From NCBI GenBank assembly GCA_031835245.2, contig JAVKOQ020000038.1:186001-250000 (forward strand): a DNA stretch of 64,000 bases. The letters are read 5' to 3'. Origin of the DNA: Balamuthia mandrillaris (lineage: Eukaryota). Positions 51,589-55,409 of this stretch are shown here, in pieces. Position 1 is the stretch's first letter, and each line of letters starts with the position of its first letter. The notes below the pieces were generated by a model. The model did no database searches and was not told where the DNA came from. It worked only from the letters and a program-made list of their open reading frames with translations. Both the position numbers and the translations under genes were made by a program.

Positions 51589-51971
51589 TTTAGGACATCA
51601 AAAATAAAAAAAAAGCGTCTGGTTCCCTCCTCCTCCGCCTCCTCCTCCTCCTCCTCTTCCTCCGCTATTCGGCTGCGCGCAAATGAAAGTTGACAAGCTT
51701 GACAGCGGACGGGCCGTCAAACATACATTTACAACTGGTCTTTCGCTTCTCCCCTTTCTTCTTCTTCTTCTTCTAGATCTCTGCGAAGGCCCCCTCCCTC
51801 TCTCTCGTTTGGTGTCCGTCTTTTATTTCTTCCTTGCCGTTATTGTTGTCGGGTGGGCAACTTTTGTCGGCAAGATCCTGTCGTGACGTCCTTAGAACAA
51901 GTAAAGAATGGACAGCAAAAAAGTTAGAGATGATGGGCAGGTAAGTGAAATTTCGTTTTTCTGTTTTATTT

Positions 51972-52098
51972 CCCGAATTACAACACGACCCCTGTGGGTT
52001 CCTTCGGAGTTTTCACGGTCCGTGACACCAAATGCTTGGTTGTCGGGGCCGTGTGGAAACTATTTAAGCGACCGCTCCGTTCTTTCCAGTCGTATCCC
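51972..52098 (-). ncRNA. Candidate omegaRNA (Fanzor guide scaffold); 5' end and strand not certain
   Basis: Multi-branch fold: 10-bp stem 51983-51992/52045-52054 (its single mismatch is G.U on the minus strand) encloses hairpins 52013-52025 and 52027-52040. A 5-bp CCGAA/TTCGG pseudoknot links 52003-52007 to the terminus 51973-51977. Confidence 0.5.
52061..52067 (+). promoter_or_regulatory. TATA-like box (TATTTAA) upstream of tnpA
   Basis: The only AT-rich heptamer in a GC-rich stretch, about 45 nt before ATG 52110. Confidence 0.4.
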
Positions 52099-52109
52099 CC
52101 AGTCCCTAC

Positions 52110-53024
52110 ATGTCACAAACCACCACCATTGACGCTACCACTACCATTACCCCACGACTCAGAGAACCCACCGAAGATCTGCACTACGTCGCCCCCACGA
52201 AGCTGATCAAACGCTATGGCGTCTCCCTCAGCGGGCTGGCCAAGTGGCACACGGAGGGCAAGGTGGCGGCCCTCCGCACCCCAAGCGGGCACCGCCGCTA
52301 CGCGGCAGAGCACGTTAGAGAGCTTCTTGGCCTCCCCGCCGCGGTCCCAGAACCCGAGGCCACCGAAAAGATCAAGGCCATCTACTGTCGAGTCTCCAGT
52401 CACGGACAACGAGAGCACCTCAAGCATCAAGTTGAGCGTATGCGAGAAGCCTACCCGAGGCACAAGGTCTACAGCGACATCGGCTCGGGCATCAACTGGA
52501 AGCGCAAGGACTTTGTCGCCCTTCTGGAGCGAGTCCTTGCTGGACATGTCGAGGAGGTTGTGGTTGCCCACCGAGACCGCCTCTGTCGGATCGCCTATGA
52601 GCTCGTCGAGCACATCTTCCGTAGGTGCGGAACCCGTCTCCTGGTGCACCGTCCGGACGACGAGGACGACGACGAGGCCGAACCAAGCAACGTCCTCGCC
52701 GAGGACCTCCTCTCCCTCGTTACCGTCTTTGTCTGTAGACACCACGGTCAAAGACGATATACAGCTGGCCAAGGAGGCAGCTCGAGCACGTCAAAGAGGC
52801 CGAGGCAAACCGAAAAGGGCGACAGAGGAGGATCCAAACGACGACGAAGAGGAGGAGGAAGATCCGACGCTGTTCAAGACGAGAAAGATACGTCTGAGGC
52901 CCACCAAGAAACAAGCCCGGATCCTCAACCGCTGGTTCGGAGGGGCGAGGAAAGTCTGGAACACCACTCTTCGAGACTGCAAGACAACGGAGAAAGAAGA
53001 AGAGGAGGAAAAGAAGAGGAGTAG
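52110..53024 (+). CDS. tnpA: IS607 TnpA: MerR-like HTH plus serine resolvase, with a basic C-terminal extension
   Basis: YGVSLSGLAKW...RTPSGHRRY (HTH); AIYCRVSS (Ser96, 52395-52397); SDIGSGINWKRK; VVVAHRDRLCR; LAEDLLSLVTVF...HGQRRY. Confidence 0.93.
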   Translation: MSQTTTIDATTTITPRLREPTEDLHYVAPTKLIKRYGVSLSGLAKWHTEGKVAALRTPSGHRRYAAEHVRELLGLPAAVPEPEATEKIKAIYCRVSSHGQREHLKHQVERMREAYPRHKVYSDIGSGINWKRKDFVALLERVLAGHVEEVVVAHRDRLCRIAYELVEHIFRRCGTRLLVHRPDDEDDDEAEPSNVLAEDLLSLVTVFVCRHHGQRRYTAGQGGSSSTSKRPRQTEKGDRGGSKRRRRGGGRSDAVQDEKDTSEAHQETSPDPQPLVRRGEESLEHHSSRLQDNGERRRGGKEEE

Positions 53025-54168
53025 AGTGGCGTGGAAGCTGAGTCGGATGCAGGGCGTCTGCGTGGTTAAACCTAGAATCATATTCGATTACTTGGAAGAC
53101 GTCCCCTACTCCATCAAGCACGAGGCGGTAAAGCAGCTCCACGGCAATTACCTCACCTGCTGGACGCTCAAGAAGCAGGGTCATATCCGACGCTTCTCCA
53201 TCAAGTACAAGCGCAAAAAGGACCACCGCACCGAGTCCATCAAGATCCTCGGACATTACGTCCACTGGTGGAAGGGCTTCGTCTACCCTGACGAGCTCCA
53301 TGTGAACAAGCGTTGGAAAGAAGCCAATGAAACCCGCAAGAGGACACCCAGACGACGGCGGTTGCCGAATCCCCACGTTAAGCACATAGACCCCATGTTC
53401 GACCCTGTAGCGTACGCTTTAGAAGGCCTGGAGTTGGACGACAAGGGCCGACTGAGACGAACCTGCACACTGCACAAGGACAAGCGTCAACATTTTTGGC
53501 TCTGCGTGCCGATCCCAATCCAACATCATGAACGGGCTCCTGATAACCAAGGGAGCATCGTGGCCTTGGATCCAGGGGTTCGCACCTTTCTGTGTGGATA
53601 TAGTCCTACCGAGAGAACGGTGAGGGAGTTTGGACGCAACGACTTTGGTCGCATCTGGCGCCTCGGAAAGCATGCCGACGCCCTGCAGTCCAAAATCGAC
53701 CGCTCCCCACCGAGCCGCCGCAAGAGAAAACTTCGCGCTCTGCTCAAACTGAGAAAGAGGGTCACCAACCTGGTCGATGACTTTCACCGCAAGACGGCCC
53801 TCTTCCTGTGCCGCCGCTACGACCACATCATCATCCCTCCCTTTGGTGTGAAGGGCATTACGGCCACCCGAGGGAGGCGACGGAGGAAGATCGGCAAAAA
53901 GACCGCCAGGATGCTCTATTCCTGGGGACATTACCGATTCCGCCAGTGGTTGCTGCACAAGGCGAGGGAATGGGGCACCAAGGTCTACATTCGTTCGGAG
54001 GCCTGGACCAGCAAGACTTGCACCTGGTGCCTCCATGTGACTCACGAACAGAAGCAACACAACCGGCGTGAGCGAATCTTCGAGTGCGGACGCAGGGACT
54101 GTGGGATACGACTGGATCGAGATATAAATGGAGCTCGCAACATACTCCTTAGGAGCCTCTGTTGTTAA
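52216..54168 (+). CDS. tnpB: Fanzor2 / IS607 TnpB RNA-guided endonuclease
   Basis: KIRLRPTKKQARILNRWFGGARKVWN (OrfB HTH); RuvC-I ALDPGVRTF (D452); IIIPPF (P541 at the canonical Glu position); SEAWTSKTC (E595); zinc finger CTWC...CGRRDC; RuvC-III DRDINGARNI (D636). Confidence 0.93.
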   Translation: MASPSAGWPSGTRRARWRPSAPQAGTAATRQSTLESFLASPPRSQNPRPPKRSRPSTVESPVTDNESTSSIKLSVCEKPTRGTRSTATSARASTGSARTLSPFWSESLLDMSRRLWLPTETASVGSPMSSSSTSSVGAEPVSWCTVRTTRTTTRPNQATSSPRTSSPSLPSLSVDTTVKDDIQLAKEAARARQRGRGKPKRATEEDPNDDEEEEEDPTLFKTRKIRLRPTKKQARILNRWFGGARKVWNTTLRDCKTTEKEEEEEKKRSRVAWKLSRMQGVCVVKPRIIFDYLEDVPYSIKHEAVKQLHGNYLTCWTLKKQGHIRRFSIKYKRKKDHRTESIKILGHYVHWWKGFVYPDELHVNKRWKEANETRKRTPRRRRLPNPHVKHIDPMFDPVAYALEGLELDDKGRLRRTCTLHKDKRQHFWLCVPIPIQHHERAPDNQGSIVALDPGVRTFLCGYSPTERTVREFGRNDFGRIWRLGKHADALQSKIDRSPPSRRKRKLRALLKLRKRVTNLVDDFHRKTALFLCRRYDHIIIPPFGVKGITATRGRRRRKIGKKTARMLYSWGHYRFRQWLLHKAREWGTKVYIRSEAWTSKTCTWCLHVTHEQKQHNRRERIFECGRRDCGIRLDRDINGARNILLRSLCC

Positions 54169-54213
54169 TCTCTTACTAATCCCTCCATTTATATCTCGAT
54201 CCAGTCGTATCCC
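54103..54213. repeat. Perfect 31-bp inverted repeat (49-nt spacer) at the element end
   Basis: GGGATACGACTGGATCGAGATATAAATGGAG (54103-54133) versus its exact reverse complement at 54183-54213. Confidence 0.95.
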
Positions 54214-54284
54214 TTTTCCTTAAATTTTTTCTAGGAAAAAGGCCGGCTTTGGGGGAAACTTTGGAGTCCGCAAAAAGCAAGTTG

Positions 54285-55409
54285 ATGGACGCAGGCTCCA
54301 GCAGCGCAGCCGCGCACAGTGGCCCGTCGAATCACGTCCTCGTTAAAGTGGTTGGAGGACCCAAGAATGGCCGCGTGCGAGTGACCATTCTCGCCTGCCC
54401 GGAATGCGGTGCCAGCTTTGCCTCCAAATCCCTCCTTCTGGCGCACATGAAGCAACGTGGGCATGGGCTGCGCTGTGCTACCTGTGGTTGGGCTTTCCTC
54501 TCTCGTGGTGCGTGCAAGCAACACCAGAGAAAAAAGGGCCACGCCTCCTCCACTGCTGCCAACAGCAACGCAGCAGTGGCTCATAAGCCAGAAGAGGACA
54601 AAGAAGCAGCAGCCACGCGCCAATCCCTCTTGCAAAGGCAACAAGCGGCTTTATTATCGGACTTTGCGCAGAAGCTTTGGGGCTTGATGCAAGGACTTAG
54701 CCAAGAGAATATGAAAGCTGATAAAACGATGCTTGCACAGCTACGGGAACAGCAAACGAAGGCGCAGGAGAACCTCAAATCCTTGTGCGGTGCCATGGCC
54801 AGCGCTTCTAGCGAAGGCCAAAAAGCAGCACAGCGGCTGTGTGAAGAGCAACTGGCAGCTATTCGACAAGAACGGGAGGATTGGGAAAAAGAAAAACAAC
54901 ACATTAGCAACGTCAATGGTCTACAACCGAAAGTGGTAAAGGTTAATGTTGGAGGTGAAGTTCCTCTCTTCTCTTTCTTACTGTCTACTCTCCTTTCATC
55001 CCTCTTCTTTTTTCTTCTCTCGGCTTGTTTTGCTCTGTATTCATTTGTTGCATGTGCGTTTTCTCTTTCTTCCTTGTGTCTTAACTTTGTATCTCTTTCT
55101 TTCCATTTCTTCTTCTATTCACCAGGACACGTGTTCACGACCTCAAGCACAACAATGTGCATGTGCACAGGATCAATGCTGGAGGCCATGTTCTCGGGAA
55201 GGCATGCCCTAACGCCAATGGAGGACGGCTCCGTTTTTATCGACCGCGATCCCACTCACTTCAGAACAATCTTGAACTATTTGCGTGGTAACAAGCCGGT
55301 ACTTCCAGAAAACCAGACTGGCCTTGAAGAACTCCTTCAGGAATGTGAATTCTACGGGCTTGCTCCGCTTGCTTCGCTCGTTCGTAAGGCGCTGGAGAGT
55401 GTATCGTGA
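54285..55409 (+). CDS. Two C2H2 zinc fingers, coiled coil and KCTD-type BTB/POZ protein; a possible upstream exon lies before the transposon
   Basis: CPECGASF...HMKQRGH, CATCGWAF...HQRKKGH, VKVNVGG|HVFTTS, FIDRDPTHFRTILNYLR; in-frame intron ~54956-55125. Confidence 0.85.
   Translation: MDAGSSSAAAHSGPSNHVLVKVVGGPKNGRVRVTILACPECGASFASKSLLLAHMKQRGHGLRCATCGWAFLSRGACKQHQRKKGHASSTAANSNAAVAHKPEEDKEAAATRQSLLQRQQAALLSDFAQKLWGLMQGLSQENMKADKTMLAQLREQQTKAQENLKSLCGAMASASSEGQKAAQRLCEEQLAAIRQEREDWEKEKQHISNVNGLQPKVVKVNVGGEVPLFSFLLSTLLSSLFFFLLSACFALYSFVACAFSLSSLCLNFVSLSFHFFFYSPGHVFTTSSTTMCMCTGSMLEAMFSGRHALTPMEDGSVFIDRDPTHFRTILNYLRGNKPVLPENQTGLEELLQECEFYGLAPLASLVRKALESVS

Follow-up and report, generated by a model that had tools for sequence, protein, structure and literature searches.

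In a transposon of Balamuthia mandrillaris, the +1 frame of the IS607-type transposase gene tnpA appears to encode the N-terminal domain of the Fanzor2 nuclease of the same element, an arrangement that is likely a bacterial heritage and in which both proteins would be translated from a single mRNA through start-codon choice (a reading to which we give a probability of about 0.62). The overlap of the two genes, found in the window analysed (a stretch of 64,000 nt), is real and, as judged from the sequence, very likely coding. Such a clade-wide dual-coding design is apparently undescribed for this known kind of element, and the host-nuclear case, the twin ATG, the basic TnpA-tail motif of a second subfamily and the splice-site-like ends are new. 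The long overlap was not described in the literature searched, and supplements, subscription papers, ISfinder or Repbase may show it; it is also absent from the available portions of PMC10711439, PMC3627910, PMC10530073, PMC3673617, PMC13565253, PMC10691335 and bioRxiv 10.1101/2023.11.20.567912.

Element Identity and the Two Overlapping Frames

The element is an IS607/Fanzor2 transposon by its profile matches, with tnpA and a TnpB-family nuclease, and its main coding features are as follows:

52110..53024, forward strand: tnpA, IS607 serine recombinase of 304 aa, with a MerR-type HTH, the RVSS catalytic motif at 52389 and a tail of 87-88 codons
52216..54168, forward strand: Fanzor2 ORF of 650 aa, in the +1 frame to tnpA, with DPG at 452-454, E595 and D636
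C602/605/624/629, forward strand, within the 52216..54168 ORF: Fanzor2 zinc finger
52216..53024, forward strand: dual-coding overlap of 809 nt (two ORFs, clade-wide openness, synonymous redraw)
52833..52850, forward strand: basic motif SKRRRR of the TnpA tail, a likely nuclear-localisation signal, kept in the second subfamily

The tnpA product matched the IS607 TnpA profile NF033518 with 150 bits (cutoff 110), with a Resolvase domain at residues 90-215 and a weak MerR match at residues 32-64, and the product of the Fanzor ORF matched NF040570 with 143 bits (cutoff 100), with HTH_OrfB (residues 221-262) and Cas12f1-like_TNB both above cutoff. Signatures of Fanzor2 and pro-Fanzor were also found, namely D452-P453-G454 in RuvC-I and E595, six residues before the zinc finger (C602). 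Several distinct flanks occur at one left end, and RICTOR proteins are present both filled (P0205) and empty (P0211), from which the element appears to have moved in the past. No second copy was found among the blastn matches in the 64-kb window, and the single-protein scan returned no viral relative. NCBI proteins with 99% identity carry the name Balamuthia mandrillaris, and the four sequences of cluster 1, which have five accessions, are all modelled by NCBI as spliced TnpA-Fanzor fusions.

Known pro-Fanzor/Fanzor2 IS607 elements, including ISvNY2A, are similar in their serine-recombinase TnpA, their nuclease with DPG and shifted Glu, their cyanobacterial relatives and their dinucleotide-core junctions (bioRxiv 10.1101/2023.08.09.552727; PMC3627910). 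However, the Balamuthia element differs from those described in the available portions of these sources in being host-nuclear, in its 809-nt overlap and in its long TnpA tail; neither an overlap of about 600 nt nor twin ATGs are described there. Intact IS607-like copies are likewise present in the genome of the amoeba Acanthamoeba castellanii, where IS607 is presented as two overlapping ORFs; how far these overlap, in which frame and how they are translated is not given in the available portions of that paper (PMC3673617).

The coordinates of the overlap, the 106 nt between its starts (ATG 52110 and ATG 52216), the ATG-free interval and the start contexts were all reproduced in the sequence as given in the initial annotation, and the chance level for an ATG between the starts is 0.5, so its absence alone is not significant. 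The tnpA ATG has T at both -3 and +4 and the Fanzor ATG has G at both, and the AUG preference of Balamuthia itself may differ. The Fanzor frame is open from 52207 onward; of 300 synonymous redraws of the window's tnpA, one kept the +1 frame free of stops across the final 125 codons, where 3.7 stops are expected. In addition, 15 Balamuthia substitutions within the overlap (among those listed), taken singly, create no stop in either frame. The proposed Fanzor start at ATG 52216 is supported, because this is the only in-frame ATG preceding the FW, WxP and SW motifs described below. The downstream candidates ATG 52546 and ATG 52597 were rejected, as both fall behind the conserved FW motif and would omit it, and the latter is not conserved (ACG in the other copies covered). 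Another ATG at 52032, upstream of a TATA-like motif, heads an ORF of 11 codons.

Beyond the profile end, tnpA continues for 87-88 codons, compared with a median of 18-22 in the clade; an extension of about 85 codons beyond the usual end had been proposed, of which the long tail itself stands and the excess amounts to about 65 codons. This tail would likely supply a nuclear-localisation signal. Its basic, NLS-like character gained support at one site, SKRRRR, which is kept through synonymous changes in the second subfamily (the loose-end sequence before 52849), where the Fanzor-frame residues differ; the second-subfamily motif was decoded manually from a single 30-base consensus and is consistent with P0122. 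Long tails are not general in the clade, with at least 60 codons in 3 of 103 relatives and four consecutive basic residues in 4 of 103.

Coding Content and Ancestry of the +1 Frame

Relatives were selected by TnpA alone as the best 80 matches per set, giving 239 loci (79 viral, 80 metagenomic and 80 prokaryotic), which, with the window added and redundancy reduced to below 80% identity, left 161 representatives; removal of 14 whose tnpA had a stop or was incomplete, and of 1 with an N, gave the 146 analysed. The nuclease is in the +1 frame in 130 of the 146, window included. Among the 129 relatives of this kind, the +1 frame is stop-free across the last 125 tnpA codons in 117, with 0.98 expected from synonymous redraws, these clade counts being of non-independent events in relatives that share ancestry. 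Openness was found in viral (46/51), metagenomic (47/51) and prokaryotic (24/27) loci, and the stop totals over the 129 relatives were 57 in +1, 1074 in the null and 1216 in +2, the last being a normal number. Only 2 of the remaining 16 loci, in which the nuclease is not in +1, are open.

The motif test used 103 relatives with both anchors, drawn from loci pre-filtered for a match to the leader profile (126/129 passed). FW was found in 65, WxP in 62 and SW in 55 of the 103, where a stop-free synonymous null gave 14.1, 4.7 and 14.0, respectively; this excess shows selection on residues of the +1 frame, as read from the sequences. A +1 ATG lies upstream of FW in 115 of 115 relatives and in the window. 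The initial annotation had proposed dual coding and, as a check, that homologous elements stay stop-free in both frames; the proposal is borne out by the clade-wide open +1 frame, found in the 117 relatives above, and by the motif excess over the synonymous null.

The motifs fall within the following segment of the leader:

52516..52668, forward strand: overprinted Fanzor N-terminal segment, residues 101-151, with FW, LWLP and SW motifs; predicted counterpart of the ApmFz2 N-terminal domain, including RuvC-R

A second set of 79 viral loci was selected by Fanzor, and its motifs were read by eye. They are retained where tnpA lies in the opposite orientation (L263, L291, L294, L295, L296) and where it was not found in the flank (L261, L268, L277, L281, L288, L299, L306), and there is little or no motif in some other tnpA-inverted or tnpA-less loci (L254, L256, L298, L317). 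Ten viral loci have only a 5'-deleted relic of tnpA, which by eye starts at profile positions 93-107, the position of motif onset.

AF2 gave ordered islands at Fanzor residues 101-117 and 144-151, with pLDDT 75-78 for residues 101-120 (88-sequence alignment). The best match in both sequence and structure is ApmFz2, the Fanzor2 of Acanthamoeba polyphaga mimivirus (PDB 9b0l), which is alike in its rearranged active site and whose N-terminal domain aligns with the Balamuthia leader from residue 100 in the predicted models. Both models align over residues 100-650 with 9b0l 53-515 (the ranges mark the first and last aligned residue only), at Z 22.3-23.5 and rmsd 4.1-3.6 with 410-417 residues aligned. 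TnpB structures align with the predicted models only from about residue 217. The own tnpA of ApmFz2 is presumably on the opposite strand. In profile alignments the SW motif falls on residues 83-84 of ApmFz2, and residues 65-74 are not reached; ApmFz2 residues 65-91 are reported as completing the RuvC fold, and Asn82 and Ser83 as contacting the omegaRNA pseudoknot (PMC11832414). According to the same paper, no other solved structure has this N-terminal domain; its available portions do not link the domain to tnpA, whereas the Balamuthia counterpart is read from the tnpA +1 frame.

The persistence of the motifs without tnpA and the structure and profile match to the ApmFz2 domain suggest that the leader is likely part of the working Fanzor enzyme. 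In the models, residues 101-151 (approximately) are predicted to fold onto the nuclease as the N-terminal domain of ApmFz2 does, and residues 1-100 are predicted to be a disordered stretch that spans the distance to the start codon. The proposed origin of the leader through overprinting on tnpA is thus supported, but its description as Ser/Thr-rich filler is not, since residues 101-151 or so match, by prediction, a structured Fanzor2 domain. The overprinting likely accounts for the structured, RNA-contacting N-terminal domain of Fanzor2, which would have originated in a second reading frame of a transposase gene. This matters for editors, as the Balamuthia gene models and Fanzor2 or pro-Fanzor constructs started at the HTH would miss the domain. 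A side observation concerns non-autonomous viral elements (L250-L252, L270, L272, L284-L287, L312), in which the part of tnpA retained is only the part with the +1 Fanzor motifs.

Measured from the first +1 ATG to the tnpA stop, the overlap spans 569-632 nt in the 15 cyanobacterial loci listed; three copies within one viral genome have 692 nt, and the same frame, length and motifs were found in Moorena bouillonii PNG, Calothrix PCC 7716, Calothrix PCC 7103 and Scytonema HK-05. In a midpoint-rooted TnpA tree of 159 sequences, the leader is present in 143; 11 of the 16 leaderless sequences form one clade (support 0.999) and 5 lie elsewhere. Because cyanobacterial genomes carry the same overlap of about 600 nt, it is not a eukaryotic invention and was likely inherited from bacteria, to judge from these loci, in agreement with the cyanobacterial origin proposed for Fanzor2 (bioRxiv 10.1101/2023.08.09.552727). 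The history given in the initial annotation, in which the overlap would date from after the move to a eukaryotic host, as a substitute for the polycistronic translation that eukaryotes lack, is extremely unlikely. The weak-then-strong contexts, the TATA-like motif and the long basic tail of the Balamuthia copy would fit it, but the 569-632-nt overlap of the named cyanobacterial genomes contradicts it unless all of them are back-transfers from eukaryotes, and the 11 of 16 leaderless loci stand apart as a separate clade. The accompanying statement that bacterial IS607 ORFs overlap only slightly is true only for that separate clade.

Probable Start-Codon Choice and Its Alternatives

Expression was considered with two further features, the second of which served as a control for splicing:

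52061..52067, forward strand: TATA-like motif TATTTAA, candidate internal promoter suggested by sequence
54285..55409, forward strand: neighbouring host C2H2/BTB gene with a spliced intron of 171 nt, its splicing visible in X12 and X21

From 124 relatives with an open leader, 9 lacking a tnpA ATG were dropped, leaving 115. A +1 ATG lies 4-13 nt past the tnpA ATG in 72 of these, compared with 1 of 115 in each other frame, and such twin ATGs occur in viral (28/45), metagenomic (29/45) and prokaryotic (15/25) loci. Because the twin ATG is conserved, start-codon choice on one mRNA is favoured. The weak-then-strong order of contexts, which had been put forward as a design principle, is not conserved: a purine at -3 was found at the tnpA ATG in 67 and at the nuclease ATG in 51 of the 115 relatives, and G at +4 in 28 versus 14.

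An internal promoter would give a capped mRNA with a short leader, on which some ribosomes would initiate at ATG 52110 to make TnpA and others would scan to ATG 52216 to make Fanzor. The ancestral form would have had two ATGs 4-13 nt apart; in the Balamuthia lineage the distance is 106 nt, the first context being weak and the second strong. Leaky scanning is a plausible mechanism and the best reading of expression, with translation deduced from sequence. Close AUGs and leaders shorter than 30 nt promote leaky scanning in viruses, and the out-of-frame AUGs of influenza B segment 6 and of tymoviruses, a few bases apart, resemble those of most relatives (PMC3542737). However, those bicistrons belong to RNA viruses with measured translation, whereas the Balamuthia element is a DNA transposon, of a kind also found in bacteria, that is known by sequence. 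This suggests a way in which a bacterial element of two genes could be expressed in a eukaryotic host, as scanning ribosomes can reach both starts because both are already at the 5' end.

High-depth contigs start at 52100 (X12) and near 52046 (X3), which hints weakly at a short mRNA leader, given that contigs cannot show a transcript start. By eye, seven cyanobacterial loci (L167, L177, L178, L190, L194, L210, L220) carry -10-like motifs some 20-30 nt upstream of the twin ATGs, with no evident Shine-Dalgarno sequence. A sigma-70 scan found nothing.

That the overlap is coding but served by separate transcripts, with alternative start sites placing some 5' ends between the ATGs, is an unlikely alternative to start-codon choice. 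The 106-nt gap leaves room for such ends, and the high-depth X12 contig begins 10 nt before the first ATG, but the 4-13 nt between the ATGs of 72/115 relatives leave scant room for a second promoter, and contigs from X12, X1, X3 and X13 cross both ATGs, though contigs do not reveal 5' ends. We consider it very unlikely that ribosomes frameshift to +1 or slip within tnpA to yield an HTH-Fanzor fusion: a +1 frame open through most of tnpA (here from 52207) would permit the fusion, but the strong enrichment of a +1 ATG just past the tnpA ATG points to independent initiation.

The NCBI models imply instead that removal of an intron links the tnpA frame with the Fanzor core in a single fusion protein, leaving the leader untranslated. 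All four tnpA-bearing Balamuthia models are fused (P0121, P0204, P0205, P0206), and a pyrimidine tract followed by TAG is present at 52709-52739. However, the models use three different junctions, most of them cut the C-terminal helix of TnpA, and the splice bypasses the conserved motifs; the TAG at 52737 is TCG in X12, X19 and X20, and cyanobacteria, which have no spliceosome, show the same overlap. No splice-type joint was listed within the overlap in the RNA reads of X19/X20 or the contigs of X12, where RNA depth is about 2-10, the strain is divergent, 3-5% of each run is covered and contigs drop rare forms; X21 has no reads on the element and carries no weight either way. On balance, such a fusion is highly improbable, and start-codon choice on a single mRNA is preferred.

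Element Ends and Possible Splice Sites

The ends of the element and its presumed RNA module comprise the following features:

51938..51946, forward strand: left junction CAG/GTAAGT, resembling a consensus 5' splice site; differing flanks join at 51937/51938
52085..52107, forward strand: segment of 23 nt complementary to 54094-54116, just upstream of the tnpA ATG (22/23 paired here)
54095..54164, forward strand: presumed right-end/omegaRNA module, 5' part, overlapping the Fanzor C-terminus
54165..54234, forward strand: copy-specific 3' segment and candidate right end, with a pyrimidine tract and then AG at 54234

Flanks join at 51937/51938 in contigs of X11 (9), X1 (2) and X3 (2) and in three reads of X19, and the P0205 gene model enters the element at the same left junction. 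The junction reads CAG/GTAAGT in 9 of 11 X11 contigs, and the other 2 join only at 51942, apparently without the GT. At the other side, the P0205 model leaves the host after RICTOR Gln-191 and rejoins it at the residue that directly follows in P0211, the protein without the interruption; on this gene model, an AG would stand at the right junction of the RICTOR copy. AG or AGG is present at both junctions, the right end of the window copy being a candidate only. No match to the left-end pattern was found in viral contigs, and of 68 inverted-repeat pairs, the 25 longest include none that joins 51941 and 54234. The terminal dinucleotide of multi-copy relatives is AG, GG or TG (junctions compared in L178, L199, L218, L234, L236, L018 and L179), and none among the pairs listed has GTAAGT after the left core, from which the AG end predates the Balamuthia lineage and the donor looks new.

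Since its ends (CAG/GTAAGT...AG) resemble GT-AG sites, the element is possibly a removable intron. Introner elements are likewise transposons whose ends would permit removal from host mRNA. The same holds for IS607 IStrons (bioRxiv 10.1101/2023.11.20.567912; PMC13565253), although these use a group I ribozyme, while the Balamuthia ends resemble spliceosomal sites in sequence likeness only. Such splice-site-like ends were not described in the openly accessible literature searched. Only tentatively, a eukaryotic IStron may be envisaged, with GT-AG ends around an AG core and splicing from host exons, and with its own promoter giving an mRNA with two overprinted frames and start-codon choice. A spliced joint from 51940 to 54235 was not seen in RNA, the left flank being almost without depth in the runs used. 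If the splice-site ends work, they would constitute a new route of intron birth, and the short derivatives of a eukaryotic IStron would be a source of new introns driven by a serine recombinase. A short derivative in X1, X3 and X11 joins 51974 to 54095 and consists of the left end and the right-end module only; other internal deletions of the element are also present.

The window copy diverges from most others after 54164, its copy-specific segment providing the Fanzor stop codon, and its 3' end may be rearranged; given this differing end, it may be a copy without a working omegaRNA. A perfect inverted repeat of 31 nt, with 54103-54133 mirrored at 54183-54213, folds as a 31-bp stem, and Rfam gave no match at the gathering score and two far below it. 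The complementarity of 52085-52107 rises to 23/23 with an allele at 52099 present in four runs. A general inverted repeat between leader and 3' end was rejected, at least 12 nt being found in 7/71 relatives versus 4/71 controls. Both inverted repeats of the window (52085-52107 with 54094-54116 and 54103-54133 with 54183-54213) share one target, the Fanzor C-terminus and omegaRNA start, and may act as sites for TnpA or as RNA pairings that compete. Transcript-like contigs also extend from 54184 into the adjacent C2H2/BTB gene.
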